A DNA stretch of 64,000 nucleotides, from NCBI GenBank assembly GCA_028821995.1, contig JAPKEQ010000001.1, positions 5,620-69,619 on the forward strand. The letters run 5' to 3'. Below are positions 3,156-58,966 of the stretch, one piece after another. A program made the position numbers and the translations under genes. Source of the stretch: Alphaproteobacteria bacterium (GTDB lineage Bacteria; Pseudomonadota; Alphaproteobacteria; UBA2136; JAPKEQ01). Every line of letters starts with the position of its first letter. The first letter of the stretch is position 1. Under the pieces are notes generated by a model. That model was not told the DNA's origin. It searched no databases and saw only the letters and a program-made list of their open reading frames with translations.

Positions 3156-3266
3156 TTTTTCCCCTGATTTCTCCCCTTAAAGAGAGTTTCTTATTTTTTA
3201 TGCGTTGAATGTTTTAACACGGCATGAGGCTGCCGTCAGGCCATTTTTAGAAAAAGGTGTAAAGAA

Positions 3267-6822: not shown

Positions 6823-6860
6823 ATTTTGTGCGCTTGCGTATTTTCCTATAAGCTTCTGGC

Positions 6861-7511: not shown

Positions 7512-7591
7512 CACTTTGACTTTTTAAGTACATCCTCATATTTTAAATGAGAATTCAATCTTTCCTGTTCACGTTTTAAGGAGACCTTTCT

Positions 7592-8152
7592 ATGGTTCCA
7601 ACCCTCCCCTCTTTCTGGATGAACAATGATCCGCAGCTTTCAGCGCTCACAATTATTGGGCAGGCCCTTCATACTGAAACAGGCGAAGCTCTTTTTGTAG
7701 CCCAGCTTTTAAGTAAGGCTCATAAAGTGATTTTGATCACACAAAAAGAGCTGCAAGCAGATGGCTATCATCAAATTGAAAGCACCAGAAAAAATCCCAA
7801 TACGTTTGCTATGCAAAACTTACCATCAAACTCTGGTGTCTACCGTCACTTTAAGGGGCATGATAAGCTTTATGAAGTCTACGGTACGGCCTACCTCTAT
7901 CAAGATAGAATGACAAGAACCCGACCGCTTGTTCTCTACAGCCCTATGTACGGAGACCACAAGGGGTTGCTCACAGCTCGCCCCTATTTAACAAGCCGGG
8001 GCTCATTTATTGATACAAAAGGTTATGGTTTTTTTGATTGGGTTTTTTATAGTGAAAATGAACAAGGGTACACCGGACCACGCTTCAAGTATGTAGGCCC
8101 GATGGAAAGCAGCATGCATCCATTACTGTACAAACCCTTTAAAACTGACTAA
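7592..8152 (+). CDS. DUF1653 domain protein
   Basis: GVYRHFKGHDKLYEVYGTAYLYQD...LVLYSPMYGD matches the DUF1653 signature (YRHYKG..Y.V.G.A.H.ET...VVY..LYGD). The N-terminal half looks like a degenerate second copy. Confidence 0.6.
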   Translation: MVPTLPSFWMNNDPQLSALTIIGQALHTETGEALFVAQLLSKAHKVILITQKELQADGYHQIESTRKNPNTFAMQNLPSNSGVYRHFKGHDKLYEVYGTAYLYQDRMTRTRPLVLYSPMYGDHKGLLTARPYLTSRGSFIDTKGYGFFDWVFYSENEQGYTGPRFKYVGPMESSMHPLLYKPFKTD

Positions 8153-8160
8153 TCGACACA

Positions 8161-8195
8161 AAAAATCCCCCGCGCTGCGGGGGGTTTTGTTTTTG
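8161..8195 (+). terminator. Rho-independent terminator
   Basis: aaaaatcccccgcgctgcggggggttttgtttttg: perfect GC stem plus T-run after the DUF1653 gene. Confidence 0.8.
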
Positions 8196-8203
8196 ATTTT
8201 ACA

Positions 8204-8234
8204 AAAAAACAGCCCCCACATGAGAGCTGTTTTA
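8204..8234 (-). terminator. Probable terminator for rpsO
   Basis: acagc-loop-gctgt hairpin flanked by A/T runs in the convergent gap. Weaker than the others. Confidence 0.4.
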
Positions 8235-8334
8235 AAGTAAGCGTTATTTGAGATGAGTGTTTTATTTTTAAGTTTGCGCAGAGTACTGAAACGTACTTAA
8301 GCAAAGAGAAAATAAAACAATCGCTCAAAGAGCC

Positions 8335-8604
8335 TTATTTACGTAGGCCTAGAGCTTTAATCACACCAACATAACGCGTTTCGTCTTTTTTACGTAGGTA
8401 CGCAAGAAGAGTACGACGCTGGTTAACAAGACGGATAAGACCACGACGTGAGTGGTTATCTTGCTTGTTTGTTTTGAAGTGCTCTGTAAGGTTACGGATA
8501 CGATCCGTTAGAATTGCAACTTGAACTTCAGTTTTACCGCTGTTCGCTTCGCTTCCACCAAACTGTTTTACAAGTTCAGCTGTTCTTTCTGTAGTAATAG
8601 ACAT
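8335..8604 (-). CDS. rpsO: 30S ribosomal protein S15
   Basis: 89 aa [16 protein letters not shown]...[24 protein letters not shown], canonical S15. Confidence 0.95.
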
Positions 8605-8630
8605 GCTATTTTTCCTATCATTACAGTATC

Positions 8631-9548
8631 TTATAGATTAAAGTTGCGGATGACTTTCACAAGCCCGTCTTCCTTCACTTCTACAAGCGAGGACACAGGT
8701 CCGTTTAGAGCCTTTACACGCATAACACCTGGTTTGAGGTGAATACGCATAAATGTTCCGCCTGCCTTGAGGCGTAATGCCTCCTCTGGAGAGGCGCGAT
8801 ACACCGGGATACCGTCCAGTGTTGCGTCTACAGCCAAAAGCAGATGGCGCGGATAATGGCCTCCATCAGCTTCTTTGTCAAGCATTTCTTGGGTTAAGGC
8901 CTTATCTAGCCCTACATCGCCCACAAGCGTTCTTCTTAAATAGGTCACATGACCATAGCATTCAAGGGCGCGGCCCATGTCTCTTGCAAGAGAACGCACA
9001 TACGTTCCCTTACTTACAGACACAGAAAAACGGGTTTTTTCTGGGCTATGCTCGAGCACATCCAAAGAATAGACATGTACATCGCGGGCTTTAAGCTCAA
9101 GTCCGCCGCCTTTGCGCGCTTCCTTGTAAGCCACTTTGCCATCAATTTTAATGGCGCTAAACTGCGGCGGCACCTGTTGAATGTCGCCAACAAATTGCGG
9201 CAGAATATCCATAATGTCTTGCTGGCTTGGCCTCTTATCAGATGTTTTTGTGGCTTCGCCTTCAAGGTCATCCGTAGAGGTCTCGTTCCCCCACGCCACA
9301 TCAAACTCGTAAGATTTATCTTCTACAATCATGTAAGGCATGGTCTTTGTCGCCTCCCCCAGTGCAATGGGAAGAACACCTGTCGCTAGCGGGTCGAGCG
9401 TACCGCCATGGCCTGCTTTTTTTGCGTTCATAATACGCTTAATATAGCCAACAGCTTGGGTCGATGTCATGCCGAGCGGCTTATCTAAAAAGATCCACCC
9501 GTGCACTTCATCGCGCGGTTTTCTATTTTTAGAGTTAGGATCTACCAT
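8631..9548 (-). CDS. truB: tRNA pseudouridine(55) synthase TruB
   Basis: [14 protein letters not shown]...[23 protein letters not shown] catalytic-Asp motif, and a C-terminal PUA-like region. Confidence 0.93.
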
Positions 9549-16242: not shown

Positions 16243-16941
16243 ATGGAATTTACAACGCAGCTCATTAAAGGCACCTTCATTAAGCGCTATAAGCGTTTTT
16301 TTGTAGATGCAAAGCTTGAAAATGGTGAAACTATTGTGGCGCACTGCCCCAATACAGGCTCCATGAAGGGACTTATCCTTGAGGGTGCGCCTGTTTACTT
16401 AACCCCAAACGACGACCCGAAGCGTAAACTTAAATACACTTTTGAGATGATTGATGCAGGCACAAGCCTTGTGGGCGTAAACACGTCTCTACCCAATAAG
16501 GTTGTTGAAGAGGGCGTTGAAAAAGATTTGATTCCTGCGCTTCTTGGTTATTCAAATATCAGGCGTGAAGTAAAATATGGCGAGAATAGCCGCATTGATT
16601 TGCTGCTTGAATCTAAAGGTAAACCTAAATGCTATGTGGAAGTTAAAAACACAACCCTTGCAGAAGGCAAAACCGCTCTCTTCCCAGATTCAGTCACAAG
16701 TCGTGGCACAAAACACCTGCTTGAACTTGCTGAGATGGTAAAACAAGGGCACCGCTCTGTAATGGTATTTCTCTGCAACCGTGCAGACTGTGAAGAATTT
16801 AGCGTGGCTGATGAGATTGATAAGGTGTATGGCGAAACCTTTAGGTCTGTGTTAAAAGAAGGTGTTGAGGCAGTTTGCATGAAGGTACGCATCAGCCCAA
16901 ACGAAATTATTATTGATAAAGAAATTCCAATTAAGGTTTAA
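16243..16941 (+). CDS. sfsA: Sugar fermentation stimulation protein SfsA (DNA-binding)
   Basis: 232 aa with GTFIKRYKRFFVDAKLENGETIVAHCPNTGSM..., the canonical SfsA N-terminus. Confidence 0.88.
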   Translation: MEFTTQLIKGTFIKRYKRFFVDAKLENGETIVAHCPNTGSMKGLILEGAPVYLTPNDDPKRKLKYTFEMIDAGTSLVGVNTSLPNKVVEEGVEKDLIPALLGYSNIRREVKYGENSRIDLLLESKGKPKCYVEVKNTTLAEGKTALFPDSVTSRGTKHLLELAEMVKQGHRSVMVFLCNRADCEEFSVADEIDKVYGETFRSVLKEGVEAVCMKVRISPNEIIIDKEIPIKV

Positions 16942-16946
16942 ATATT

Positions 16947-17735
16947 GTGCGCATCAAACCAAAGAACAGTGTAGAACTCAAAAAAATGGCAGCAGCAAGC
17001 GAACTTGCCGCACGTACGCTGGATATGATCACCCCGCATATTAAGCCGGGTATTAGCACTGAGAAAATTGATCAGCTTTGCCATGAATTCATGATCAAAC
17101 ATAATGCTGTGCCTGCAACACTTGGGTATAGAGGCTTCCCTAAATCTTGCTGCACCAGCATCAACGATGTCATTTGCCACGGCATCCCTTCTGAAAAAGA
17201 TATTTTAAAGGATGGCGATATCATCAATGTAGATGTCACGGCTATTCTTGATGGCTATCACGGCGATACCTCTCGCATGTATCCTGTTGGAGATGTGAGC
17301 GAAGAGAATCGCCTCCTTATGCGCACGGCATATACCTGCATGATGGACGCCATTGATACTGTTAAAAGTGGTAGTTTCCTTGATGAAATCGGGAAAACAA
17401 TTCAAACTAAAGCTGAGGCACTTGGTTATGGCGTTGTCCGCGATTATTGCGGCCATGGCCTTGGGCGCGTTTTCCATGAAGACCCGATGGTGCTTCACTA
17501 CTACAGCGGCGACCCGCGCCAACATATCCGCTTGCGTAAAGGTTCAACATTCACCATTGAACCGATGATTAACATTGGCACATTTGATGGCGAAGTTATG
17601 GAAGATGACTGGACTGTGCGCACCAAAGACCGCAAAAATAGCGCCCAATACGAGCACACCATTGCCGTGACTGAGGGCGGGTCTGATATTCTGACCAAAT
17701 CGCCTGAGGGTTATACAGATAATTTAGACCTTTAA
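16947..17735 (+). CDS. map: Type I methionine aminopeptidase
   Basis: ICHGIP...DGDIINVDVT...GYHGDTS...GHGLGRVFHEDP metal-ligand motifs. Confidence 0.93.
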   Translation: MRIKPKNSVELKKMAAASELAARTLDMITPHIKPGISTEKIDQLCHEFMIKHNAVPATLGYRGFPKSCCTSINDVICHGIPSEKDILKDGDIINVDVTAILDGYHGDTSRMYPVGDVSEENRLLMRTAYTCMMDAIDTVKSGSFLDEIGKTIQTKAEALGYGVVRDYCGHGLGRVFHEDPMVLHYYSGDPRQHIRLRKGSTFTIEPMINIGTFDGEVMEDDWTVRTKDRKNSAQYEHTIAVTEGGSDILTKSPEGYTDNLDL

Positions 17736-33160: not shown

Positions 33161-35119
33161 ATGAGTGAGTCAATAGAATTATGCGCATTAAGAGAGGGGT
33201 ATTGGGACCTTATAAGTACTTACCCTCCCTCTCAAGAAGGTATCGCAATTAAAGAAGCTGCTAATATCCAAACAGGGTATGCGGCGGTTGCTGTGCTTTC
33301 TGTAGAAAAAATGCACATCGCTTATTACATTACACTTAGAAATATTCCCAAGCCTACATACTATGATATTAGAAAAAGTGTAAAAGCTGAACGTCCGACC
33401 ATGCGTCAAAAAACAAAACCTAAAAAAACTGCTAAACCTGAAAATTCTCAGCATACAACAACGTCAGCATCTGTAGAGAACACACCTAAACCTGTAGCCG
33501 CAGCATTAGAAGATACTCATGAGCTAAGCTTTTTTGAAAAACTTATCGATTCACTGTTTTATCTGCTTACAGGAAAACATGTGAAAGAAAGCCCTCACTC
33601 TAAAACACAAGAAAAAGAGAGCCGTGCAACTTCTGTTACCTCCCAAGATGAACAAACCTTATCAGGTGAACCGGTAACAGCTTCTCAACAAACAGAAGAA
33701 AGCACTCTTGAAAGCCTTCTAGAAACGCAACTTGAAGAAAAATTGGATGCCAATCCCCCCTCTGAAGAGGCAGTGCCAGATGAAGAGGAAATACCCGATA
33801 CAGCACAAGCACCTGATACACATGAAGAGACAAAGGCACCACAACCTCAAGCCGAAATTTCTGCTAAAAACCCTTTCAAAGCAAAGGAAGAGCATAAAAA
33901 CACTTCCAGCCCTCTTATGCAACCGCCAGAGCGCGAAAAGAAAAACGCTGCTCTTAAAAATACAAAGGCTAGCCTGCCCAAAATTGGAGGGGGACATATT
34001 CCAAACCCTTCAACTCCACAAAAATCACAAAGCACACAAGATACAGGCACAGCTTTTTGGAACAACATTGCAGAAGATGATGATGATTTTGAAAGCATAC
34101 GTCTTCAAATTCAAAAAAGCTTATTTGGAGCCATTGAACGCGCCAAGCAGCTGGCCTGGCTACCAGAACAAAGCACAATGCGTGGCACACTACAGCTTGC
34201 ATCTATTCTTCTTATTTGCGGTATTGGTAGAAAACTTTGCTCTCATGTTGGCGTCCCTGGTGGGCTTGGCAATCAAGTCATTGCAGATACACTTGAGCAA
34301 CTCGGCCTTTCTGATAAGCAAGCTTTTATCTGCGCACTCCACGTAGATCGAATACTCAGCGATCATAAAAACAACCTCATGTATCTTATTGGCCGCGCCT
34401 ACGGAGCCAACATTTTAAACGACACGGAGCAGCGCATTGACTTGCTCAGTATTTTTAACGCATGGGAAGCTAACGAACTTGAAAAATATTTTGACGTTGA
34501 TGAAGAAAAAAACACAGCTAAACTATCTAAACTGCCTTATCTAAAAGCAATTTCTATTCTCCTTACTGACATTGTGAACTTCACAGGTCAAAGCAATGAA
34601 AAAGGTGAAAAATGGGTTAAAGATGTTGTACATGCCCATAACCGCATGACAAAAACAATAACAGTCCATCAAAAAGGAGAGTATATCCAAGGAACTGGTG
34701 ATGGCGCCCTCCTTATTTTCACATCACCCCAAGCTGCAATGCATGCCGCCCTGGAGCTTCAATTTATGCATCAAAATTTCTGCAGGCGTGTGGCAAGTAG
34801 ACATTTTGATATTAGAGTTGCCGTAAGCCACGGTATTCCTATTCAAACACAGTCAGGTTTGCATGGTCCTCCTATTGAAGAGCTACATATGATCCATAAA
34901 GAAATGGGTGATATTGGCATTGCTGTAACAAAGGGCATAGCAAATATTGCAGAGCAACACGGGTTCCAATTTAATTTAAACGAAGAGACAGCCTTCCCCA
35001 TTTATGAATTTACAACATACACAGGAGCTCATACAGTAAGCGACAAAGACCAGACAAAAGAACAACACGCTGAAACTCCCGCAGAGAAGATGCAAGAAGA
35101 AGGACAACAACACGTATGA
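33161..35119 (+). CDS. Class III nucleotidyl cyclase-domain protein A: novel N-terminal domain, long acidic low-complexity linker, C-terminal cyclase domain that appears degenerate
   Basis: C-terminal LLTDIVNFTG...GEYIQGTGDGALLIF...FDIRVAVSHGIP matches the class III cyclase homology domain. The GxxVNxAAR transition-state motif is absent. Residues 80-300 are E/P/Q/T-rich. Confidence 0.8.
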   Translation: MSESIELCALREGYWDLISTYPPSQEGIAIKEAANIQTGYAAVAVLSVEKMHIAYYITLRNIPKPTYYDIRKSVKAERPTMRQKTKPKKTAKPENSQHTTTSASVENTPKPVAAALEDTHELSFFEKLIDSLFYLLTGKHVKESPHSKTQEKESRATSVTSQDEQTLSGEPVTASQQTEESTLESLLETQLEEKLDANPPSEEAVPDEEEIPDTAQAPDTHEETKAPQPQAEISAKNPFKAKEEHKNTSSPLMQPPEREKKNAALKNTKASLPKIGGGHIPNPSTPQKSQSTQDTGTAFWNNIAEDDDDFESIRLQIQKSLFGAIERAKQLAWLPEQSTMRGTLQLASILLICGIGRKLCSHVGVPGGLGNQVIADTLEQLGLSDKQAFICALHVDRILSDHKNNLMYLIGRAYGANILNDTEQRIDLLSIFNAWEANELEKYFDVDEEKNTAKLSKLPYLKAISILLTDIVNFTGQSNEKGEKWVKDVVHAHNRMTKTITVHQKGEYIQGTGDGALLIFTSPQAAMHAALELQFMHQNFCRRVASRHFDIRVAVSHGIPIQTQSGLHGPPIEELHMIHKEMGDIGIAVTKGIANIAEQHGFQFNLNEETAFPIYEFTTYTGAHTVSDKDQTKEQHAETPAEKMQEEGQQHV

Positions 35120-36624
35120 GCATTGACCTCTGCATTTTAAGACAAGGCGCTTGGGAAATTCATTCTACTTACTCTCCGGGAGAGTCAGAAAAAGCCGTAC
35201 AAGATGCCATTCGCTACAAGCAAGAAAAAGCCTACACTGGCGTTGTTGTTATTGATGATAGAACAAAGAGCGTTTTATACGGCTATACATCTTCTGGAAA
35301 ACCAGCATTTGACACAGTGGTAAAAAGCCTTAAAGAAGGCAAAAAAAACCTACGTGTTCAAAGCATGCAAACAAACATGAAAAACAAACCTGCAAAACAA
35401 GCCGCAAGCCCAAGCACCCCAAACCCAATCCAAACCAACAGCAAGCTTAACTCTGTCATGAGCGTGAGTATGCTATCTCTCATTATTGCCGTTACCATTT
35501 TTATGGTTCTACTCAACGTATTTAATGATCTTACCTCAGCACTTGTTGGCGCTATTTTTACAGCGGTATCGGCACTTATTGCATTTAAAATAGCAAATTT
35601 TGACCCCAGCACATCCATTGAAACTGTCGCTAAAATTGTTGCTACAAAAATGCACATCGGAGCTTCTGCCGAAGCACTTGATATGGAAAATGACAACTTA
35701 AGCATTAAAGATCACATTCAAAATGTTGTAGATTCCGCCGTACAAGGGGTTTGGAATGAAGAGCAAGAAGAAGCACCAAAAGAATCTGCGCTTGGCATTA
35801 TTCTTTTATGCTCTGGCGTCATAGAACATATCCACCAGGCACAAAACTACAAACGTCTTGTACTTATTGAAATGGCGAGCGATATCATTGAAGACTCTAA
35901 ATTCTCAATTCCCAAAGCAAGCACTGTCGCTTGCTACAAAAACATACTTGAATACCTTGCCTATCCTCGTTATTCCAGCATGTACGACATGGGGTATCAA
36001 CTTTCTAAAAAATTCAGCGCTAGCAAGGATACTGAAACCCTTAACTTGCAGGTTAGCCAAGCTTTTGAAGCTTGGTCCTCTCATCAAGATGTCACAGCAA
36101 GCCACAATGCGGCCGCAGCCATTTTATTTACAGATATTGTAGATTTTACATCCACACATCAGGACCGTGGAGATAACTGGATGATGCGCATATTAAACGC
36201 GCATAACGATGCCGTACGCGAAGGCCTCCATGTTACTGGCGGACGGGAAATTAAACACACAGGAGATGGCATCATGGCATCCTTCCAGTCTGTTAAAGAT
36301 GCCCTTGATGCTGCTATTGTTGCACAACGTAAAATTAATGAATTTAACATTGCCCATGAATCTGAGCGCTTTGAAGTACGTGTCGGCATTAGCTATGGAG
36401 AGCCTGTACACATCGGAGGTGACCTTTTTGGGACACCTGTAAATAAGGCCGCTCGCGTTCTTTCTAATACTCATGGAGAAGAAATTGCAATGTCTTCAGA
36501 AGCCTGGCTTGAAGCAAAGAGCTACGGATATACTGCAAAAGAAACAACTGGGGTTGAATTCAAAGGATTTGATGGCATTCACAGCCTCTTTAAGATCAAT
36601 TGGAAAGAGGCTGAGCAAAGCTGA
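35116..36624 (+). CDS. Class III adenylate/guanylate cyclase B (paralog of A): shared N-terminal domain, TM segment(s), intact cyclase domain
   Basis: ILFTDIVDFTS...IKHTGDGIMASF...FEVRVGISYGEPVHIGGDLFGTPVNKAARV carries all class III catalytic motifs. Its start overlaps the stop of A by 4 bp. Confidence 0.88.
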   Translation: MSIDLCILRQGAWEIHSTYSPGESEKAVQDAIRYKQEKAYTGVVVIDDRTKSVLYGYTSSGKPAFDTVVKSLKEGKKNLRVQSMQTNMKNKPAKQAASPSTPNPIQTNSKLNSVMSVSMLSLIIAVTIFMVLLNVFNDLTSALVGAIFTAVSALIAFKIANFDPSTSIETVAKIVATKMHIGASAEALDMENDNLSIKDHIQNVVDSAVQGVWNEEQEEAPKESALGIILLCSGVIEHIHQAQNYKRLVLIEMASDIIEDSKFSIPKASTVACYKNILEYLAYPRYSSMYDMGYQLSKKFSASKDTETLNLQVSQAFEAWSSHQDVTASHNAAAAILFTDIVDFTSTHQDRGDNWMMRILNAHNDAVREGLHVTGGREIKHTGDGIMASFQSVKDALDAAIVAQRKINEFNIAHESERFEVRVGISYGEPVHIGGDLFGTPVNKAARVLSNTHGEEIAMSSEAWLEAKSYGYTAKETTGVEFKGFDGIHSLFKINWKEAEQS

Positions 36625-49645: not shown

Positions 49646-49665
49646 CCCCCTGACATAAAACAGGA

Positions 49666-49704
49666 AAAGGAATGTAACGACTCGTTACATTCCTTTTTTA
49701 TTTG
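49666..49704 (+). terminator. Rho-independent terminator with a perfect 11-bp palindromic stem
   Basis: ggaatgtaacgactcgttacattccttttttatttg. Confidence 0.8.
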
Positions 49705-49831
49705 CAAAACTATCACACAACATTGTTTTAATTGGTTTTTTTATTGGCTACATGTCTTTTTTTACTACATGTCAGTTACAATTAGAATGTAACGTCATAA
49801 TACAATGCAACTTATCGACTGGAGAAAAATT

Positions 49832-50401
49832 ATGTTGAGTTTAAAAAAATTTAAAAATCAAAAAGGTGCCATGTTTGGTCTAGATGCCCGTGTCGCCCTT
49901 GCAATTTTTGGTGGTCTTTCTGTTATTGCGGGTGCCGCAGTATTTAGTAGTATTAGTGAAACGCGTGTAACGTCACTTATCACAGAGTTTGATAACGTTT
50001 CAAAAGGTTACATCAACTACGTATTTGATACAGGTGTTGATACACTCACTTTTGACGACATGCTCGCTGACCCAGGTAACCCTGTTGTTGGTTGGTCTGG
50101 CCCATACCTAACAGTAGCCAGTGACAACCAAACAACATACGGCACTTACAGCTATGACGAAGGTCCGGATTCTGCTGGCGCAGACCCTACAAGTAACGCT
50201 TGCGCCACAATTTGCTATGTATGGCTAGAGCTTACTGGCGTTCCAACATCAATTGCCATTAGCGTTGATAACGCTATTGATGGAGATGATACACCTATAA
50301 CAGGTACACCAACAGCAGGTAATTTCCGATTCGTAGATACTGCAGGAACATCTGTAACACGCTTTAAACTATCTCGTTGCCAAACTGCAACCTGCGCATA
50401 A
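49832..50401 (+). CDS. Pilin-like protein (candidate major subunit). Basic leader ending in Gly, hydrophobic N-terminal helix, C-terminal Cys pairs
   Basis: MLSLKKFKNQKG|AMFGLDARVALAIFGGLSVIAGAAVF...NACATICYVW...SRCQTATCA. GGAG RBS 6 nt upstream. Followed by a hairpin. Confidence 0.6.
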   Translation: MLSLKKFKNQKGAMFGLDARVALAIFGGLSVIAGAAVFSSISETRVTSLITEFDNVSKGYINYVFDTGVDTLTFDDMLADPGNPVVGWSGPYLTVASDNQTTYGTYSYDEGPDSAGADPTSNACATICYVWLELTGVPTSIAISVDNAIDGDDTPITGTPTAGNFRFVDTAGTSVTRFKLSRCQTATCA

Positions 50402-50445
50402 TTTAAGCCTACCGCTTAAATTTGTGCTTATTTAGCAACGGCGAA

Positions 50446-50480
50446 AACGGCCTCGTAACATATGCGAGGCCGTTTTCATG
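50446..50480 (+). terminator. Terminator or attenuator hairpin after the pilin-like gene
   Basis: gaaaacggcctcgtaacatatgcgaggccgttttcatg: 12-bp perfect stem followed by UUUU. Confidence 0.6.
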
Positions 50481-50560
50481 TCTAATACACAGAGAAAGGT
50501 TGAGTTCTGCCCCTCTTCTTTGCCATAATGGAATATAAGAAAAAGAAAGCGATGTAATAG

Positions 50561-52258
50561 ATGGACATTGTCGATCTCATGATCAGTGATCAGGTGATCA
50601 ACATAGCAGACCTACAAGGTCTGCCTGTTACTGTGCAAAAAGATCCGGAACAACTTATTGATGCCCTTGGTAAGGCCGGTAAGCTTTCTGAGATGCAACA
50701 GTCTCGTTACAAAGCTATCGCTTATGATTACCCTGTCAGAACAGACGAAGAAATGTCCCGCACCACACCTCACCAAGTGGACGGGGTCAACGCTGACTTT
50801 ATGAATTTTTATACGGCCTGCCCTATTGAACTTGGGCGCGGTGCGATCACTTGGGCTTCCGCAGATTTACCAAACAAACGTCTACTGAGCGAAATTGTAC
50901 TCAGGCACCGTAAAAACAGGCACCAATTTGTATGGGCTTCTGCAAAGTCTATTGAATCTGCAATTGAGCGCATGTCTAAGCGTGAAGGGCACTCTCTCAA
51001 ATTCCTTGTAGAAACTGCCTATGCACAAATTAACGCGGGTAATGATGATGCAATTGTCCACCTTACTGATGAAATCATCAGAACAGCTTACAAAAACAAC
51101 GCATCAGATCTACACATTGAAATCTTGAACCGTAAACCTACGGTTATGGCGCGTATTGATGGTGAACTTGAAGAACTTGTACCGCTTCCTATTGAAGTTT
51201 ACGAGCGTGTTGTTGGTCGCTTACGTCACATGGCCGGTGTACGTGCTGAAAACTATAAAAAACCGCTCTACGGACGTATGACATTTGAACTTTCTGCTCG
51301 CCAGCATATTGATATTCGTTATACAACGCAGCCAATTACCCTTGAGAGCACGGCAAAAATTGCAATGCGTTTCCTAAAACCGTTTGAAGGTAGTATTGAT
51401 AACTTCGGTTGGCGTAAAGACAGTATTGGCAGGCTTGATGTTCTTATGCGCTTTGAGGAGGGATGTATTATTTTTGCAGGACCTACGGGTTCTGGTAAAT
51501 CAACAGGCGCACGTATGATTATTCGTCGCGGTCAACGCCCGGGTCAAAACGTAATTTCATACGAAAAGCAAATTGAGGAACGTATGGATAACGTAATCCA
51601 AACGGAAGAAGACCTTAGTGCAGGACTAAACCTTGAATCCTTCATGTATGCTGCACTTGGTCTTGACCCTGATGTTCTCTTTATTGGTGAGGTACGTAGC
51701 CCAGAAGATACGCGCCGATGCATTGATGCAGGTAACCTTGGTCACCTTGTTATTACAACCATGCACGCCAACGACACATTTATGACCCTTGACCGTCTTG
51801 TGCAGCGCGGTGTGCCTGTGGAGCAAATTTTCTCTAATGTTCGCGGCATTATCGCCCAAAGGCTCGTTAAAAGGCTCTGCAACAAATGTAAAGTTCCACT
51901 TGAACTTGATGCTGAATTTACGGAACAGCTGAATAGTTTACGCCCCCTTGATTTTAAAGAGGGTGACGTTATTTATAAAGCCAATGTTAATGGTTGTGAA
52001 CATTGCCGCCATAGAGGGTATATTGGCCGTATTGCTATCGAAGAAATTTTAGAGTTATGGCGTAAAGATATTACCCGCAACATTTGGACAAGCACAGCGC
52101 TTAGACCTGATTGGATTGATATTATCCGTAAGCAAGCTGTAGAAATTGGAATGCCTGATATGCTGACGCAGGGTATTTCTCAAGTAAAAACTGGGGTAAC
52201 ATCCCTTGAAGAACTAGAAAGATTTTTCAGTGCAGATTTGGAAACAATTCAGTCGTGA
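50561..52258 (+). CDS. GspE/PilB-family type II/IV secretion ATPase
   Basis: Walker A FAGPTGSGKST, Asp-box region DIRYTTQPITLESTAKIAMRFL, Walker B/His-box VLFIGEVRSPEDTRRCIDAGNLGHLVITTMHANDT, and a tetracysteine zinc motif CNKC...CEHCRHRGY. Confidence 0.88.
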   Translation: MDIVDLMISDQVINIADLQGLPVTVQKDPEQLIDALGKAGKLSEMQQSRYKAIAYDYPVRTDEEMSRTTPHQVDGVNADFMNFYTACPIELGRGAITWASADLPNKRLLSEIVLRHRKNRHQFVWASAKSIESAIERMSKREGHSLKFLVETAYAQINAGNDDAIVHLTDEIIRTAYKNNASDLHIEILNRKPTVMARIDGELEELVPLPIEVYERVVGRLRHMAGVRAENYKKPLYGRMTFELSARQHIDIRYTTQPITLESTAKIAMRFLKPFEGSIDNFGWRKDSIGRLDVLMRFEEGCIIFAGPTGSGKSTGARMIIRRGQRPGQNVISYEKQIEERMDNVIQTEEDLSAGLNLESFMYAALGLDPDVLFIGEVRSPEDTRRCIDAGNLGHLVITTMHANDTFMTLDRLVQRGVPVEQIFSNVRGIIAQRLVKRLCNKCKVPLELDAEFTEQLNSLRPLDFKEGDVIYKANVNGCEHCRHRGYIGRIAIEEILELWRKDITRNIWTSTALRPDWIDIIRKQAVEIGMPDMLTQGISQVKTGVTSLEELERFFSADLETIQS

Positions 52259-53324
52259 TGCTTTAGGCCCTCGGGTCACGGAAATGCGTGCACGCGACCG
52301 TGAACGCATGTTTTTCCTTATGTATCAAATGCTTAAATGTGGTCAAACCACAGAGTCAGCTGTGCGTGCCGTTGCAAAATCTTTTAGATCAGAAGGTAAA
52401 GAGGATATCTCTGCTGCACTTCATGCTATTGCTCAAAAAGTTGCCCAAGGAAAGCCTATGAGTAAATCCATGGAAATGGAATATGTTATGTTTGACGATG
52501 TTCACCGCGCCGCTGTTATGGCAGGGGAAGCCTCAAACTACATGACAGAATCTTTTCATATTTTACAAGTTTTAGAGGATAAAAAAATTGCAGCTTCGCG
52601 CGCTGGGTTGGCTGAACTCCTCACACCTATGCTTATGCTTTGCTTCAGTTTATTTTCTATTTTTAATACAGGCCTTAACACACTGCCTGTCCTTACACAG
52701 CTAAAAACTGCCCAAGGAAAAAAACTTGGCGTAGCACCACGCATGGTTATGGATATGACTGGTTGGTGCGCAGAGCACTGGCATATCCTCCTTGCAATCG
52801 GAATTACCCTTGCTGTGACAGCTTATGCAGGTATCAAATCAACCCAAGGACGATTCTGGTTAGATTACTACACCCTCCGCGTCCCTCTTATGGGTAAGTT
52901 TATCCGCTATAAAACCTATGCAAACATGCTGCTTTATTTTCCGCACCTTGTAGAAAGTGGCGTAAAACCAAAACAAATGATTCCAATCATGGAAGCCATG
53001 TCGACGAATATTGTGCTACGCCGTAAAATTGATGCTTTTAACCAAGTTATTACCACAGGTGGTAAAATGTCTGACGCTATGGAAAAAGCTGGATTCCCTG
53101 GCCTGATTGTAACGCCTATTCGTGTATCAGAAAATTATGCTGGTAGTGATACAGGGACCAACGATGTTATGATTGAAGGTATGAACCATGCTTACTCTAT
53201 CTTAGAACGAGACCTAACTGATACGCACAAACGCTTTATTGGCACGTTCTCGGTTATTTTATGGTTAATGGGTGGTGGCGTCATGCTACTTGAGATGATG
53301 TCAATTGTACTTGCACAGTCGTAG
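52230..53324 (+). CDS. GspF/PilC-family inner-membrane platform protein. Start uncertain (52230 or 52284)
   Basis: Two cytoplasmic helical domains separated by TMs. The second repeat (RVPLMGKFIRYKTYANMLLYFPHLVESGVKP...GFPGLIVTPIRVSENYAGSDTG...ILWLMGGGVMLLEMMSI) follows the T2SSF pattern. Confidence 0.75.
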   Translation: MQIWKQFSRDALGPRVTEMRARDRERMFFLMYQMLKCGQTTESAVRAVAKSFRSEGKEDISAALHAIAQKVAQGKPMSKSMEMEYVMFDDVHRAAVMAGEASNYMTESFHILQVLEDKKIAASRAGLAELLTPMLMLCFSLFSIFNTGLNTLPVLTQLKTAQGKKLGVAPRMVMDMTGWCAEHWHILLAIGITLAVTAYAGIKSTQGRFWLDYYTLRVPLMGKFIRYKTYANMLLYFPHLVESGVKPKQMIPIMEAMSTNIVLRRKIDAFNQVITTGGKMSDAMEKAGFPGLIVTPIRVSENYAGSDTGTNDVMIEGMNHAYSILERDLTDTHKRFIGTFSVILWLMGGGVMLLEMMSIVLAQS

Positions 53325-53336
53325 GAGAAAAAAAGC

Positions 53337-54497
53337 ATGCCTATGATTAAAAGCCTTCTCGGACAACAGTTTAAAAACATCTGTTTTACTGGTTTGAACC
53401 GTGTGGAATACTTACCTGATGGGTCTGACCAGCCTATTTTTGGGGATAGTTGGCAAGACGTATCTGATGATCAAGCTCGCCGTACAATGTGCCTCGCATT
53501 TTTTGCACCAAGAGATCTTTCAGGTGAACCTGTTGATCCCGCATCAATTCTTATTGAGAATTACTCTGATGAGGACGTTCCTGATGCTATAGCAGCAGAA
53601 AGCATTAAACATATTCCTCTTATGGATTATTGCCGTATGCCACCAGCTGACTCAAACACCGTAAACTTTATTGTTGTGGCAGATGTCATCTTCCATTGGG
53701 ATATTAAAGATAACTACTTGCAGCCCACATCCCAGCTTACATGGGTACAAGATATTAAGGCCATTTTAAAATCTTACCCAAGGAGTTACACTAAAAACGT
53801 TTATACTAACTGGCAAAAAGATAAGCTTGAAGAGCTTCGCGTTAATGTTCTTCCGCTGAGAGAATCTCCTGTTTTTAGTGAAGTTTGGCTTAACATGCCA
53901 TCCTTTCAAGAAAAACACGGTAATATTATGCTAACCTTAGGTATCTTGGTATCTCTTGTAGCCTTTGCAATCACCTACATGCAAGATATGAAGATCAAAG
54001 AACTGCAAGATCAAAAAAGATCTGTCGTTACCTCTATGCCATCAGGGCAAAACTATTCTGTCCTCTCAAATCTGATCCGCACGCAACAGCAAAACATGTC
54101 CTATAGAGAGTATTTCCCATTCATACTAAAAGATATTTCGTACGCCATCCAATATTCAGGTATGAAAATTGATTCATTTGAATTAGAGGTCCCAAACCCT
54201 CAGGAAGCGCCTAAAAATCTCCTGCTGACAATTAATGCCAATAGCGATGCTTATGATGGATGGCTTGAGGAAGAGCCTGTGGCCAAATCATTCCTTGCAC
54301 TTAGCAGTACTGTTCAAGCTGTAAGGCGTCAACCTGGAAGCAAGAAAATGAAACTTGAAGGTATTATTCCCCTCATGTCTGCCATAAAAGAGATTCACCC
54401 TTACTTGCAGGAAGCAAGAAAGACAAGAGCCATTGGCAACCGTACTCTTGGTAATACCTCAGAGGAAAAAAACAAAGAGACTGGAGATGACTCATGA
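53337..54497 (+). CDS. Hypothetical bitopic membrane protein (GspL or PilM-N-like topology: cytoplasmic domain, TM, periplasmic domain)
   Basis: Single TM near residue 195 (IMLTLGILVSLVAFAITYM). Assigned by position in the cluster and by topology only. Confidence 0.45.
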   Translation: MPMIKSLLGQQFKNICFTGLNRVEYLPDGSDQPIFGDSWQDVSDDQARRTMCLAFFAPRDLSGEPVDPASILIENYSDEDVPDAIAAESIKHIPLMDYCRMPPADSNTVNFIVVADVIFHWDIKDNYLQPTSQLTWVQDIKAILKSYPRSYTKNVYTNWQKDKLEELRVNVLPLRESPVFSEVWLNMPSFQEKHGNIMLTLGILVSLVAFAITYMQDMKIKELQDQKRSVVTSMPSGQNYSVLSNLIRTQQQNMSYREYFPFILKDISYAIQYSGMKIDSFELEVPNPQEAPKNLLLTINANSDAYDGWLEEEPVAKSFLALSSTVQAVRRQPGSKKMKLEGIIPLMSAIKEIHPYLQEARKTRAIGNRTLGNTSEEKNKETGDDS

Positions 54498-54991
54498 TTC
54501 AGTTTACAATAGGCCTTGCACTTTTTGCTTTTGCCGCAATTCTTGGCACTTTTAAATCGTTTGAAAACGTGGATAAAATTCAAGTGACCCAAAATAGCTT
54601 GCAAAGCTCCATGAGGGATAGAGATCGCATCCTAAAAATCCAAACGGATATTCAAAAAGCAGTACGTGAAACACTTGAAGCAGGACAGGATCAGAAAAAC
54701 AATATTGAACGATTGTTTAACCTTGCTGAAAGAGATTTAGAGTTTAGCTTCATTGGTCAGCCGACTCAAAACCCCGCTGCACCGGGAATTTTTTATCACA
54801 CCTACAGAATTACCGGCATTGAAACCTATTCTAAAATTTCAGAACTACTAACCCTTATCGCTTCAACTCCAGGGTTTTCTGTGTATAAAACATGTTTTAA
54901 CTGCTCAAGAGTAAGCCGCGAGCTCAAGCCTGGCCACCACATGATTACAATAGAAGGGCATCTATATGTTCATAACCCACGCCAGATTTAA
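54494..54991 (+). CDS. Hypothetical bitopic membrane protein (GspM/PilO-like topology)
   Basis: N-terminal TM (LALFAFAAILGTF) and a periplasmic domain of about 140 aa. Overlaps its neighbours by 4 and 26 bp. Confidence 0.45.
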   Translation: MIQFTIGLALFAFAAILGTFKSFENVDKIQVTQNSLQSSMRDRDRILKIQTDIQKAVRETLEAGQDQKNNIERLFNLAERDLEFSFIGQPTQNPAAPGIFYHTYRITGIETYSKISELLTLIASTPGFSVYKTCFNCSRVSRELKPGHHMITIEGHLYVHNPRQI

Positions 54992-56111
54992 ACTTGCCCT
55001 AACAGCTTGTGCTATTACTGTTGTGACGCCAAGCCATGGCCAAACTATTTCTTGGCCAGATACATTTACAGGCCAGCCAGATTTTGAGTTTACGCGCACA
55101 GATATTGTAAAAGAAATTCAAGAAAAAAGACCTGAATCATTCTCAATATTAACAGGAAACCTTGATCGATCTCTCAGTACACAAGGGGTTAACCCCTTTT
55201 CCCCTAAAACATCTCAAAACCTTATTGAGATATATAGTAGATATAACGAGAACGAATCTATTGCTATTGAGCGCAAGAAAAATCCGGTTCCGCAAGCATA
55301 CGTAGGCTCTAGGCATCAAATTTTCCTTAGAACAGGTGAAACCTCTGGCGCTAATATTATTTTAAAGGATGGAGAGGTCTTTGCCATGCTATCTAGCGGC
55401 AAAATTCTCCCTATTGAGCTCGCACCCAACAATACCATTGTGGAATACGTGGCTACAACACAGATTTCAAAAGAAGAAATTATTGACCAAAAATTCCAAG
55501 ATCTTTTTGCTGGAAAACGCCTGTTTTCTGATACATCTGTAAATTTAGAAGAAGTTGATAGCAGACTTGCAGGTCTACAAACATATCAAGCAGATGGACA
55601 ACTGCCTGATTTTTATACAGATTCTCAAGGACGCCTTGCTCCCACAGAGTTCAAGCGCTTTTTAGAGAGGCTTTTACGCCAAACGCTACAAAAAGAGCAA
55701 AAAAACCTTGGCTTACAAGATTTCTCTCAAGATATTAAAAAGATCAAAATTGACAGTATTGTAACCTCACCATTTAAGTATGCTGTACTAGACGGTGAAA
55801 AATACAGCGAAAAGGAACGATTTTTCCTTTCTGTTCAAAGGCCTCAAGGACAAAACACTAACTTTAGAGCCATTGTAGAGCAATACATACCCCCTAAAGA
55901 TTCTATGGATGCGGGCATGCACCAATCTTTCTTAAATGAAGCCAATGGTGTTATTGAGCAATACGAAAGAGAGCTTGGCATAGAAGCAGGCACTGCGACT
56001 CGTATGGCAACCCATAAGATAGGGGTAACAGTAAAAGAAATTGGCCACAGAAAAGTTATTTTAACAATTGGTGACAGGGATTACCCGCTTAAAATTAACT
56101 TGGCTCTATAA
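54966..56111 (+). CDS. Hypothetical periplasmic protein of the filament cluster (not a secretin)
   Basis: Signal peptide ALTACAITVVTPSHG. No secretin C-terminal motif. Confidence 0.45.
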   Translation: MFITHARFKLALTACAITVVTPSHGQTISWPDTFTGQPDFEFTRTDIVKEIQEKRPESFSILTGNLDRSLSTQGVNPFSPKTSQNLIEIYSRYNENESIAIERKKNPVPQAYVGSRHQIFLRTGETSGANIILKDGEVFAMLSSGKILPIELAPNNTIVEYVATTQISKEEIIDQKFQDLFAGKRLFSDTSVNLEEVDSRLAGLQTYQADGQLPDFYTDSQGRLAPTEFKRFLERLLRQTLQKEQKNLGLQDFSQDIKKIKIDSIVTSPFKYAVLDGEKYSEKERFFLSVQRPQGQNTNFRAIVEQYIPPKDSMDAGMHQSFLNEANGVIEQYERELGIEAGTATRMATHKIGVTVKEIGHRKVILTIGDRDYPLKINLAL

Positions 56112-56114
56112 GAG

Positions 56115-56873
56115 ATGATGAAAGCAAAGCAAAGAAAACAAATGAAAATATTATGTCAAAAGGGTGGCTTTTCGCCATTCATGTTTGGCGTTCTGGCTGC
56201 GCTCTCTATTTTTAGTACCATGCTTGCTCAATGGGCAAAAGAAGACCTAAAACAGCTACAAAGCGAAAAATTAAAACGCCAGCAAGCACACTCTGAAGAT
56301 ATTAAAGAAGCCATTGAAATAGCCATCCTTTCAGAGAACAGCAACGTAGCTGGAAATAATTACAGCCAAACTTATGATATTGGCCGCGCACAAGGGTTTC
56401 TTTCATCCTCAAACAACACGACGCGCGGTGGAGCTGCCATTCAAATGCAAGAAGTTGATAGTAGTCAGGTTCAAGATATTCAAAACAAACGTATTGCAAT
56501 CAGCTCATCAGATGACACATTTCTGCGTACTGACGTGGCAGGGCTTGCAAACGAAGATGCTATAGCAGCTTATGACAGCGGCCTTGATGGCGCTATGGCA
56601 ACAGTAGATACAGAAGCTTTACGTAACCAGCAAGTAAAGCACTCAAGGCAACTCTTAGAAAAAGAAGCAAGCTTGCTTTATACATTCTTTACAGAAAACA
56701 GCAGGTTTCCCGCCAATCAAGGCGAGTACGATACTGATATAAACGCATTAACAAATTACAAAGATACCTGGGGAAATGACTTTACCTACACCTATGCAAG
56801 CGATACCGAAGCAACATTAGGTTTTACCACACCGTGGGGGAAAAGCTTTAACGTTCGTGTGGATATGAACTAA
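56115..56873 (+). CDS. Pilin-like protein (candidate minor pilin), prepilin-type leader QKGG|FSPFMFGVLAALSIF
   Basis: Basic leader ending in GG, followed by a hydrophobic helix of about 20 aa lacking Glu5. The rest is polar. Confidence 0.5.
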   Translation: MMKAKQRKQMKILCQKGGFSPFMFGVLAALSIFSTMLAQWAKEDLKQLQSEKLKRQQAHSEDIKEAIEIAILSENSNVAGNNYSQTYDIGRAQGFLSSSNNTTRGGAAIQMQEVDSSQVQDIQNKRIAISSSDDTFLRTDVAGLANEDAIAAYDSGLDGAMATVDTEALRNQQVKHSRQLLEKEASLLYTFFTENSRFPANQGEYDTDINALTNYKDTWGNDFTYTYASDTEATLGFTTPWGKSFNVRVDMN

Positions 56874-56893
56874 GAAAAACAAAGGAAAATAAT

Positions 56894-57802
56894 ATGATAC
56901 GTGCCATTGCAAAACGCTTAAAAAGCCAAACAGGTGCTGTTTTTGGTATGGATGCCCGTGTGGCACTTATTATTGCAAGTATTATGGCTGCAACAGGTGG
57001 TGTAACCGTACTTTCTCGTGTTGAACGTAATAAAAACGATGCTGCTGAACGCGGTATTGATTTACTTGTGAACGCCAACCTGAAGTACTACATCACAACA
57101 GGTATTAATACCATATCTCCTGATATTGCGACCCTATTTACATCTGGCGTTATGGAAGAAACATACCTCCAACAAGACCCGTGGGGCAACAACTGGAACT
57201 ATGTGATTGGCTCTACAAATATTGAAATTGAAGATGTGCCTGTCACCATGTGGTACGGTACTATTCATACAAGCGGTAAAGATGGCACAGATGACTCTGT
57301 AGCTATTGCATCTTATGCGAACTGGCAAGTATGGGAAGCCGCAGGTGATGATATTGGTATCAAATTTTCAACCACATCTATTGAAAAAGATCGCGTGGAG
57401 CTTTACAGAAAGCAAGGCCAAGAGATTTCTGACCGTCTCGCAGCTGTAGAAGCTGCATGGTACCTTGATGCAGATGGCGCTTGCACTGGCCCTGCGTGGT
57501 GTACAAGTGGTGGTAAATCTTACACAAACTTTAGTTACTATCCAATTTCTAGCCTTGATGCCAATGTCAACGTACAATATTTTGATGCTGTTTGTACCGA
57601 CACTGATATTGCAGGAACAACCAGCGCCTGTAATGATGTGACATACATAAGCGGGAACCAAGGCTCAATGGAAGCGCTATTAAACTTGCTTAACCTGCCC
57701 ATTAGCTATGCAACAGACCCTTGGAATCGCACTTTAAGGTATAACTCAAACCTAACAGACCGCGAAGATCCACCATTTAGCGCTCAGGTTTGGTATCAAT
57801 AA
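56894..57802 (+). CDS. Pilin-like protein sharing the N-terminal motif of the 49832 gene
   Basis: MIRAIAKRLKSQTG|AVFGMDARVALIIASIMAATGGVTVL, then Cys-containing C-terminal region (ACTGPAWCTSGG...AVCTDTDIAGTTSAC). Confidence 0.55.
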   Translation: MIRAIAKRLKSQTGAVFGMDARVALIIASIMAATGGVTVLSRVERNKNDAAERGIDLLVNANLKYYITTGINTISPDIATLFTSGVMEETYLQQDPWGNNWNYVIGSTNIEIEDVPVTMWYGTIHTSGKDGTDDSVAIASYANWQVWEAAGDDIGIKFSTTSIEKDRVELYRKQGQEISDRLAAVEAAWYLDADGACTGPAWCTSGGKSYTNFSYYPISSLDANVNVQYFDAVCTDTDIAGTTSACNDVTYISGNQGSMEALLNLLNLPISYATDPWNRTLRYNSNLTDREDPPFSAQVWYQ

Positions 57803-57805
57803 ACA

Positions 57806-58417
57806 GTGTTTGCATTTGAAAGACAGTTTCTCACAGAGGATGATATTTCTGAGGGGTTAATCCCAGAAAAGTTCCATATTATCCTTACAGGGCTGTTTTT
57901 TCTTATCTTTGGTGCACTGAGCCTTGCAAGCATAGCAACAGCAATGGAGTGCCTTTTTTGGGGGATAACAAGCCTTGTTTTAGCAAGGCTTATTGCCCTA
58001 GACCTTACAAACCATACACTTCCCAACATTTATATTGCTCCTCTATGTTGCTTTGCACTTATTGGGAGCCTTACAGGCATGCTTCCAATCACATGGCAAG
58101 ATGCTCTCTTTGGCGGAGCTATCGCATTCTCAAGCGTTCTTGCTCTTAGTTTTCTTATTGAATTTTTATTAAAATCTGCCTTTCTTGGCGGAGGAGATAT
58201 AAAATTCATAGGCGCATCAGGCCTTTGGCTAGGTTGGGGGCTTTTACCTTTTTACATGATGGTTGCCTGCTTTTTCACAATTATCATTTCTTTCCTCCCC
58301 AGTAAAAACAATCATATCGCCTTTGGCCCAGGGCTTTGCTTCTCTTTATGGCTGTTTTTGCATCAAAAAACTTACTTGATGGTCTTGATAAACAAGGCAT
58401 TTGCCTTTATATCTTGA
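57806..58417 (+). CDS. Prepilin peptidase, peptidase A24 family, short TadV/CpaA-like form (GTG start)
   Basis: Polytopic 203 aa with the second catalytic Asp motif LGGGDIKFIGASGLWLGW (A24 GxGDxKL). No N-terminal Zn-finger or methyltransferase region. Confidence 0.75.
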   Translation: MFAFERQFLTEDDISEGLIPEKFHIILTGLFFLIFGALSLASIATAMECLFWGITSLVLARLIALDLTNHTLPNIYIAPLCCFALIGSLTGMLPITWQDALFGGAIAFSSVLALSFLIEFLLKSAFLGGGDIKFIGASGLWLGWGLLPFYMMVACFFTIIISFLPSKNNHIAFGPGLCFSLWLFLHQKTYLMVLINKAFAFIS

Positions 58418-58420
58418 AGT

Positions 58421-58966
58421 ATGACCGAAATATGTGCCCATCCAGACTGCGAGCTTGAAGGAACTTTTCCTGCCCCTAGAGACCCTAGCAACATATCTGC
58501 GCGCCAATATTTCTGCGAAAAACACATCAAAGAATTCAATAAAAACTGGAACGGCCTTAAAGGCTTTAGCAGTGACGACCTTTACACCTTACAGTCTGGT
58601 GCCACATGGGGACGTCCAACGTGGAAAATGGGTGTAAACACAGAATCCTACAAAAAGGCAACCCTTGCAGCTGACAAGAATTACAAAAACCCATACACCC
58701 TATTTGGTGATATGGATGAGGACCAAGCAACCACTACATTTACGCCTAAAATGCCAAAAAAAATTACTGAAGCCTGCGAAACATTAGGCATAGAGCCACC
58801 ACTCACGCCTCATATTATTAAAAAGCGCTTCACAGTTCTTGCTAAGAAATTTCACCCAGATATTTATACGGGGGATGATGCTGCCGAACGTATGGGTATT
58901 ATTAATGATGCCTATACAACGCTTAAAGACTACCTTAAACGCCAAGAAGCAGAAGCTAAAGGCTAA
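58421..58966 (+). CDS. J-domain protein with an N-terminal Cys/His-rich segment
   Basis: C-terminal IIKKRFTVLAKKFHPDIYTGDDAAERMGIINDAYTTLKDYLK (HPD motif). N-terminal CAHPDCELEG...FCEKH. Confidence 0.65.
   Translation: MTEICAHPDCELEGTFPAPRDPSNISARQYFCEKHIKEFNKNWNGLKGFSSDDLYTLQSGATWGRPTWKMGVNTESYKKATLAADKNYKNPYTLFGDMDEDQATTTFTPKMPKKITEACETLGIEPPLTPHIIKKRFTVLAKKFHPDIYTGDDAAERMGIINDAYTTLKDYLKRQEAEAKG

Follow-up and report, generated by a model that had tools for sequence, protein, structure and literature searches.

A putative type IV filament machine with Gsp-like parts, deeply diverged, from an uncultured lineage placed close to the base of the Alphaproteobacteria

The window analyzed here, a 64-kb stretch of contig JAPKEQ010000001.1 from an Alphaproteobacteria bacterium (GCA_028821995.1), contains nine packed open reading frames (ORFs) on the same strand (49805-58417, +), which we call g1 to g9. 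From g1 to g9 the gaps between neighbors are +159, -29, +12, -4, -26, +3, +20, and +3 nucleotides. The locus raises the question of which machine these genes encode; Pfam and NCBIfam identify three of the nine products (g2, g3, and g9). A scan of one genome per species of the GTDB returned 28 loci with the g2 ATPase, which are the genome loci referred to below. We conclude, with a probability of roughly 0.6, that the cluster encodes a working type IV filament machine of the PilB/GspE branch, built of Gsp-like parts and forming a deeply diverged, lineage-bound subfamily.

Nine genes with a Gsp-like parts list

The assembly ATPase g2 (50561-52258, +; 565 residues) is of PilB/GspE type. It matched the Pfam family T2SSE at E = 4e-67 and, weakly, MshEN (7e-5) with its N-terminal MshEN/N1E-like domain, and it carries a Walker A motif at residue 307 and CxxC motifs at residues 440 and 479. 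Its NCBIfam scores were 245.8 bits for PilB (TIGR02538, cut-off 676), 234.9 bits for GspE (TIGR02533, cut-off 630), and 17.6 bits for TadA (cut-off 373), and thus below every curated equivalog cut-off. Matches to PDB sequences were nearly equal for PilB (170 bits), PilF (169 bits), and GspE (165 bits), with BfpD (76 bits) and PilT (66 bits) at a distance. Identity is 65-100% within the clade of g2 and at most about 33% beyond it, with reference ATPases from type II secretion systems (T2SS) standing at 26-27%. In a crude neighbor-joining tree (497 columns, 200 bootstraps, few references) this clade has 100% support and a long stem, and three T2SS references, two of them alphaproteobacterial, group at 92% to its exclusion; a Methylorubrum entry in the tree is a fragment and was disregarded. 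We considered the nearest ATPases outside the clade (P0083 and P0120) as a guide to its origin and rejected them, as they lie in unrelated type IV pilus-like clusters with N_methyl pilins. Locus L031 also holds a long peptidase.

The platform g3 (52230-53324, +; 364 residues) is a two-domain inner-membrane protein of GspF/PilC type, which matched T2SSF in two stretches (2e-14) and has three hydrophobic segments. GspF was its best NCBIfam model (93 bits, cut-off 424), and it matched PilC (3jc8) at 5.5e-7 and a Rhodobacteraceae GspF at 3e-14.

The next three genes encode proteins that escaped most sequence comparisons. The bitopic g4 protein (53337-54497, +; 386 residues) has a single transmembrane helix at residues 197-215, and its 22 orthologues gave no Pfam, NCBIfam, or PDB sequence match. 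Its AlphaFold2 model, made from an alignment of database proteins (mean predicted local distance difference test score 80.7), has an alpha/beta domain in the cytoplasm, a transmembrane helix that is prolonged into a long helix, and a ferredoxin-like domain in the periplasm. All of the top seven Foldseek hits were GspL cytoplasmic domains (5tkw, 4pht, 1w97) or PilO (3jc8_O, 2rjz), which weakly suggests that g4 is GspL-like. The bitopic g5 protein (54494-54991, +; 165 residues) has one N-terminal transmembrane helix, a predicted coiled coil, and a C-terminal domain. It is kept in 21 loci, and the CxxC pair C134/C137 is among just ten residues that are invariant in these 21 orthologues. Located in the predicted periplasmic domain, this pair might form a disulfide or bind a metal; such a motif is not known from GspM or PilO. 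The g5 orthologues matched no family, hhalign against GspM profiles gave no signal, and no paralogy signal links g5 to g4. On position, size, and topology alone, we infer that g5 is GspM/PilO-like.

The g6 protein (54966-56111, +; 381 residues) is secreted or periplasmic, with a cleavable Sec signal peptide ending in a conserved AxAQ in place of a transmembrane anchor or lipobox. A conserved N-terminal motif, WPxTFxGQPDFxF, is followed by a variable linker and by a C-terminal beta domain of the GspB/GspC homology region (HR) type, which is PilP-like and split by a helical insertion. The HR domain was seen by structure and, in relatives, by Pfam T2SSB; no PDZ domain was detected, and the family comprises only 74 representatives. 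When g4, g5, g6, and g7 were compared by hhalign with profiles of GspL, GspM, GspC, and GspK, made from E. coli or from three species, no signal appeared, and profile searches of PDB sequences with g1, g4, g5, g6, g7, and g8 returned nothing significant.

The three pilin genes are g1 (49805-50401, +; 198 residues, with a translation start that may be at Met 49832 instead of 49805), g7 (56115-56873, +; 252 residues), and g8 (56894-57802, +; 302 residues). In each product a short basic leader precedes a Gly and a single hydrophobic helix. The signal reads QKG-AMFGLDARVAL in g1 and QTG-AVFGMDARVAL in g8, and this near-invariant N-terminus, Q/K-x-G followed by A-M/L-F-G-M/L-D-A-R-I/V-A-L, is conserved in their orthologues. 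Neither the window nor the 28 genome loci contain a canonical GFTLIE-type prepilin, and none of g1, g7, and g8 matched Pfam N_methyl. The pilin models are divided for g8: T2SSG matched 19 of 20 orthologues (best 1.5e-7) and N_methyl none of the 20. When compared by hhalign with a small GspG profile, g8 aligned at a probability of 79-92% (E 1.6e-5 to 6.5e-7) over 108-124 columns that include the DPWGN motif, and g1 at 95% (E 3.8e-8). In g8 the GspG-like module contains DPWGNNWNY, and a C-terminal extension contains a second DPW motif. These alignments place the leader Gly on Gly-1, a conserved Gly on Gly+14, and the Asp, with one residue inserted before it, on Glu+5. By these comparisons g1, the candidate major pilin, and g8 are GspG homologues, and the signal [K/Q]xG-AMFG(L/M)DAR is unique to their family. 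Cleavage could occur after the Gly, leaving Asp at +6, or after Gly-Ala, leaving Met at +1 and Asp at +5.

The pilin-like g7 is different. Its signal, QxG-xFSPFMFG, is conserved in all orthologues, its N-terminal helix contains no acidic residue, and a C-terminal D.WG..F.Y motif is conserved. We found no family or PDB match for g7 and no similarity to GspH, GspI, GspJ, or GspK. By analogy with minor pilins without Glu5, such as GspK, it is a candidate minor or priming pilin.

The polytopic prepilin peptidase g9 (57806-58417, +; 203 residues) matched Peptidase_A24 alone (3e-12). Like seven orthologues it lacks A24_N_bact; its N-terminus has no CxxC, and the catalytic residues D66 and D131 (in GGGDIK) are invariant. 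Because the missing N-terminal domain carries the methyltransferase in the long PilD types, N-methylation of the pilins is predicted to be unlikely.

ATPase, platform, A24 peptidase, and GspG-homologous pilins together place the cluster within the generic definition of a type IV filament system, and its parts list is coherently Gsp-like: E, F, an L-like and probably an M-like protein, a B/C-HR protein, G-like pilins, and an O-type peptidase. A sequence-only reading of the window had already described nine co-directional, tightly packed or overlapping genes with a GspE/PilB-type ATPase bearing a Cys4 motif, a two-domain GspF/PilC-type platform, pilins that fit neither consensus, and a short A24 peptidase, and these descriptions stand. 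Of its two bitopic GspL/M-like proteins, the topology holds for both, the GspL likeness of g4 weakly, and the GspM likeness of g5 is undetectable by sequence. The signal-peptide protein that it assigned to no family, g6, is of the GspB/GspC-HR type.

Conservation in one lineage and orphan pilin arrays

The 28 genome loci come from species-level metagenome-assembled genomes (MAGs), among them MarineProteo1_Bin2, and the order ATPase-platform-g4-g5-g6-g7-g8 is kept in every sufficiently long one. Because this arrangement is repeated across 28 genomes at species level, we consider the nine genes real and not chance ORFs. The peptidase and a J-domain gene usually come next after g8 in relatives. 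Three loci (L009, L014, and L028) have no peptidase gene adjoining the cluster, and in some loci where tblastn had not picked it up, diverged copies of it are present. Upstream of the ATPase, one subgroup, which includes the window, has a cytochrome c gene and g1; the other, of higher GC content, has Lon, HU, or other genes in this place. Identity across relatives is 67-79% for the ATPase, 50-64% for the platform, and 20-48% for the remaining seven proteins, a graded conservation that, judged from the sequences, is the pattern of functional, vertically inherited genes.

All of the roughly 80 protein clusters in the ATPase clade (65-100% identity) come from MAGs labeled Alphaproteobacteria, Proteobacteria, or Magnetococcales. 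A near-identical relative of the window's organism, CAXHDG010000012.1, is filed as 'uncultured Magnetococcales', and the MAGs of loci L001-L028 bear the names Magnetococcales, Pseudomonadaceae, Pseudomonadales, 'Blastochloris viridis', Proteobacteria, and Alphaproteobacteria. Because closely related MAGs bear such inconsistent names, the public taxonomy labels are unreliable for this lineage. A search of plasmids returned ATPase relatives of at most 32% identity and essentially no relatives of the peptidase. As far as the sequences sampled tell, the system is confined to one uncultured lineage, MarineProteo1 and its relatives, near the base of the Alphaproteobacteria; MarineProteo1 itself is known from MAGs only and has been placed near that base (PMC10411912).

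Some loci hold additional pilin genes. Locus L020 (KhW_metabat.34) has extra paralogues of the pilins with the DAR signal (DAR pilins), with a second g1-like gene upstream (7933-8493) and a g8-like gene for 341 residues downstream (16608-17633), and L087 has three g8-like genes in tandem. Because of these extra paralogues, the pilin complement of the cluster appears plastic.

DAR pilins are also abundant away from the motor genes. A metagenome scan with the back-translated pilin motif returned at least 120 loci with at least 183 DAR-motif ORFs; among the matches listed, at least 192 ORFs match g1 and 6 match g8. Most of those listed stand in orphan tandem arrays, each with 2-7 paralogues some 190 residues long, set amid housekeeping genes and far from ATPase clusters; examples among the matches listed are L069 (2-7899, seven copies), L122 (1898-4401, four copies), L045, L082, and L110, with about 100 further metagenome loci. 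About the first 30 mature residues of the array pilins are near-invariant (GAMFGLDARIALAIFGALSVISGAALYSAI), and the C-terminal domains vary while carrying a GW.GPY motif and a Cys pair. The DNA of most arrays has a GC content of about 32%, and at the N-terminus these pilins are identical to g1 from MarineProteo1_Bin2. No recurrent partner or secretin stands beside the arrays in the listed loci, where the neighbors are housekeeping genes with no recurrent family. Because the arrays are abundant and their C-termini variable, it is probable that the machine handles major pilins from a large and diversified repertoire.

Three metagenome loci deserve mention for their neighbors. In L137 a gene for a 917-residue subtilase (Peptidase_S8) with N-terminal ankyrin repeats (1971-4724, -) is flanked by DAR pilin genes at 1127-1953 and 4858-5475; its product could be a secreted effector, and its domains hint at interaction with eukaryotic cells. 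In L073 a ComEC gene (Competence and DUF4131; 7623-9509, -) adjoins a three-pilin array (5591-7636), a single case that may be coincidence. At the contig end of L090 a fragment of another secretion-type ATPase (1794-2315, -; P-loop GGTGSGKT) lies convergent to a DAR pilin gene. Among the queries used, it matched E. coli GspE best (E 9e-7), and organisms of this type may have a second system.

Which machine the cluster encodes

We searched for secretins with E. coli GspD, a Kozakia GspD, an Oceanithermus secretin, and a hidden Markov model (HMM) built from them. As a positive control, these three secretins from three phyla detect each other at E ≤4e-19. The ORFs searched numbered 3,765 and came from the window, from the 28 genome loci (with 10 kb to either side of the cluster), and from 120 metagenome loci; none of them gave a match, even at E ≤10. 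The sequence-only reading had proposed a system with no secretin and had named a gspC-D or pilQ just outside the window as evidence for a degenerate T2SS. Its negative stands for the window and for 10 kb around the cluster in the 28 genomes, where no such secretin gene was found, and the HR domain of g6 argues against extending it to a truly secretin-less system. In type IVa pilus (T4aP) systems the secretin is routinely encoded apart from pilB and pilC. For all characterized HR, PilP, and GspB domains, the binding partner is a secretin's N0 domain (PMC3169554, PMC9239104, PMC4098917). An HR-domain protein makes an unlinked secretin more likely, so that 'no secretin' is better put as 'no linked secretin', and by analogy with these systems we consider it quite probable that a secretin is encoded elsewhere in the genome.

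The following scheme is drawn from homologous systems and fitted to the observed gene content. The prepilins g1, g7, and g8 would enter the inner membrane, where g9 would cut the basic leader at the conserved Gly. The fibre would be primed by g7, with no acidic residue in its helix, and the large GspG-like g8; because these two are always encoded with the motor, they resemble a priming or minor set. Most of the fibre would be made of g1-type pilins, with their near-invariant helix and variable C-terminal domain, and polymerization would be driven by a hexameric g2 ATPase via the platform g3. The cytoplasmic GspL-like domain of g4 would anchor g2 at the membrane, g4 would partner g5 in the periplasm, and the HR domain of g6 would link the platform to an outer-membrane secretin, encoded elsewhere, by way of its N0 domain. 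By analogy, the product is most likely a surface-exposed pilus with interchangeable subunits for adhesion or contact, and the filament possibly also acts as a secretion piston.

Several points weigh against a Gsp-like filament machine of this kind. The secretin search was negative throughout, and the outer-membrane step is extrapolated in its entirety because no secretin was found. The Foldseek statistics of g4 are weak (E 3e-3 to 2e-2), and for g5 no likeness to GspM or PilO was detectable. The ATPase tree has few references, and its deep nodes lack support (16-57%). Neither a retraction ATPase nor a secreted substrate was identified, and the choice of pilus over secretion turns on a single trait, the variability of the pilins. 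The cleavage site and the absence of methylation are predictions.

Of the competing explanations, a degenerate or fast-evolving T2SS survives best, and we regard it as unlikely but worth serious weight. In such a system a periplasmic pseudopilus of g8, with g1 and g7, would push folded exoproteins through an unlinked GspD. The accessory parts are of the T2SS kind and not of the T4aP kind, and the features in common with a T2SS are the GspE-type ATPase with a zinc-type double CxxC, a two-domain platform that scores best against GspF, an L-like protein that is a single fused bitopic chain (g4), after it a small M-like protein that is also bitopic, a GspB/GspC-HR protein (g6), DPWGN-bearing GspG-homologous pilins, and a dedicated A24 peptidase ending the operon. 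In addition, no PilM, PilN, PilO, PilP, PilQ, or PilT family was matched in the cluster or in the larger window ORFs scanned. However, the ATPase falls outside the 92% group of T2SS references, so that the placement inside a T2SS clade which would have made this a plain T2SS was not recovered in the neighbor-joining tree, and it scores equally against PilB and GspE. The cluster has no GspH/I/J/K set and a different gene order, and its L, M, and HR proteins escape sequence HMMs in this genome. A gspD adjoins the cluster in none of the 28 genomes, yet lies within the cluster in the reference T2SS loci compared here. The pilin signal, xG-AMFG(L/M)DAR, has Asp for Glu5, a one-residue insertion, and no N_methyl match, and the major pilin family of this lineage is expanded into tens of tandem, C-terminally variable paralogues, which would be unexpected if the filament were a piston in the periplasm. 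No gene linked to the cluster is a candidate for an exoprotein. Nor is the cluster simply the alphaproteobacterial form of a T2SS, because the alphaproteobacterial references (Kozakia baliensis and a Rhodobacteraceae plasmid) keep the canonical GFTLLE; the Kozakia peptidase has 263 residues and a CxxC. We also considered a link to the mitochondrial T2SS and set it aside, as the GspG of that system keeps the canonical Glu+5 (PMC8134430).

With T4aP the cluster shares an ATPase that scores as well against PilB/PilF as against GspE, the lack of a secretin gene linked to the ATPase-platform operon, a major pilin gene upstream with its own intergenic region, and multiple pilin paralogues in which the N-terminal helix is conserved while the C-terminal domain, with its Cys pair, varies. 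Unlike T4aP, it has no PilM/PilN split, no PilP lipoprotein, and no N_methyl signal, the window has no PilT, the peptidase lacks the N-terminal domain, and the globular domain of the pilins is of GspG type. The mature pilin of about 190 residues and the non-Phe residue at +1 resemble type IVb pili; the ATPase is far from BfpD (76 bits versus 170 bits for PilB). A further precedent is the 884 'generic' type IV filament systems that Denise et al. (2019; PMC6668835) left unassigned in a survey of complete genomes, which include the T2SS of Chlamydiae, with unrecognizable GspLM and minor pilins. As in those systems, ATPase, platform, and pilin (with peptidase) are present and no specific model fits, whereas here the missing parts are present and too diverged for sequence detection. 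Because hundreds of such systems were left unassigned, a new divergent subfamily is not very surprising. Our literature searches found no paper on this clade.

A bolder proposal is that the cluster represents a separate filament family ranking with T2SS, T4aP, and MSH, with non-methylated, tandem-diversified DAR pilins in a shifted register, no secretin or a novel partner, and conservation as a MarineProteo1 trait. We think this doubtful. The sequence-only reading had called the cluster an undescribed subclass that fits no known system; with g2 under the curated cut-offs for PilB, GspE, and TadA the second part holds, and the first holds for a divergent subfamily and not for a new kind of machine.

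Still less probable is a truly secretin-less machine, whose filament would be periplasmic or would leave by a non-secretin exit, with the HR domain of g6 rebinding, for example, peptidoglycan or another outer-membrane protein. It would account for the negative search, in which the control worked across three phyla, and for the strong remodeling of g6 (signal peptide, helical insertion in the HR domain, lineage-specific N-terminal motif). The search, however, covered a small part of each genome, and both the routinely unlinked secretins of T4aP and the N0 binding of characterized HR-type domains speak against it.

That the cluster makes a DNA-uptake (competence) pilus is highly improbable. Transformation is a common role of machines of the PilB/GspE branch (PMC6668835), and the ComEC gene of L073 lies beside a pilin array; but this is one adjacency in 120 listed loci with no recurrent neighbor family, the other array neighbors are housekeeping genes, and no ComEA, DprA, or PilT gene is linked to the cluster.

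The T2SS/Tad chimera favored by the sequence-only reading, a GspE/F motor recombined with Tad-type maturation, is largely refuted: the one trait shared with Tad/Flp systems, an A24 peptidase that is short and, like TadV/CpaA, has no N-terminal domain, is not Tad-diagnostic, because E. coli K-12 GspO (225 residues, likewise Peptidase_A24 only) has the same architecture, and the ATPase is not of TadA type (17.6 bits), the single two-domain platform is not a split TadB/TadC, the pilins are GspG homologues of 190-300 residues and not Flp pilins of 50-80, no TadZ, RcpA, RcpC, or TadD is recognizable, as that reading itself had noted for TadZ and RcpA, and recent recombination is disfavored because the peptidase keeps its place across the lineage.

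Surroundings of the cluster and meaning of the finding

The cluster lies amid chromosomal housekeeping genes (SecA, EF-G, LigA, SdhA, RecN, and SufBCDS), with a gene for a membrane-anchored cytochrome c directly upstream and a J-domain gene directly downstream. Scans of the 64 kb for tRNAs and Rfam features were negative. A promoter scan of the cluster did not exceed shuffled expectation, and a terminator scan gave no clear operon boundary within it. Between the cytochrome c gene and g1, a perfect 15-bp hairpin followed by a T-run on the minus-strand reading (49665-49697) may separate the two transcription units.

The J-domain gene (58421-58966, +) begins 3 nucleotides past g9 and encodes 181 residues, with the J domain C-terminal and a Cys/His-rich N-terminal region. 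It lies downstream of the cluster in most genomes and, in L087, between the peptidase and a g1-like pilin gene. We considered it as a tenth component and rejected it: because Rhizobiales and Rhodobacterales replicons carry full-length homologues at about 30% identity, it is probably conserved synteny and not a component. Elsewhere in the window, a 652-residue ORF without a Pfam match at E ≤1e-5 (33161-35119, +) overlaps by 4 nucleotides the start of a gene for a 502-residue protein with an adenylate/guanylate cyclase domain (35116-36624, +); the two may form an uncharacterized signaling pair.

What makes the cluster of interest is the signature of its pilins, their arrays, the question of how the outer membrane is crossed, and the lineage that carries it. 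It illustrates that filament clusters which seem unclassifiable can conceal a full Gsp-type parts list, with L-like, HR-type, and GspG-like proteins that become visible only via structure prediction and family-wide profiles. The new pilin signature, xG-AMFG(L/M)DAR, could annotate hundreds of hypothetical proteins in marine and freshwater metagenomes. If complete genomes of these organisms prove to have no secretin, the passage of a type IV filament through the outer membrane of a diderm would become a mechanistic question. MarineProteo1 and its relatives figure in debates on mitochondrial origin, and almost nothing is known of their cell biology; a conserved machine combined with large, variable pilin arrays would point to a lifestyle of surface contact in this lineage.

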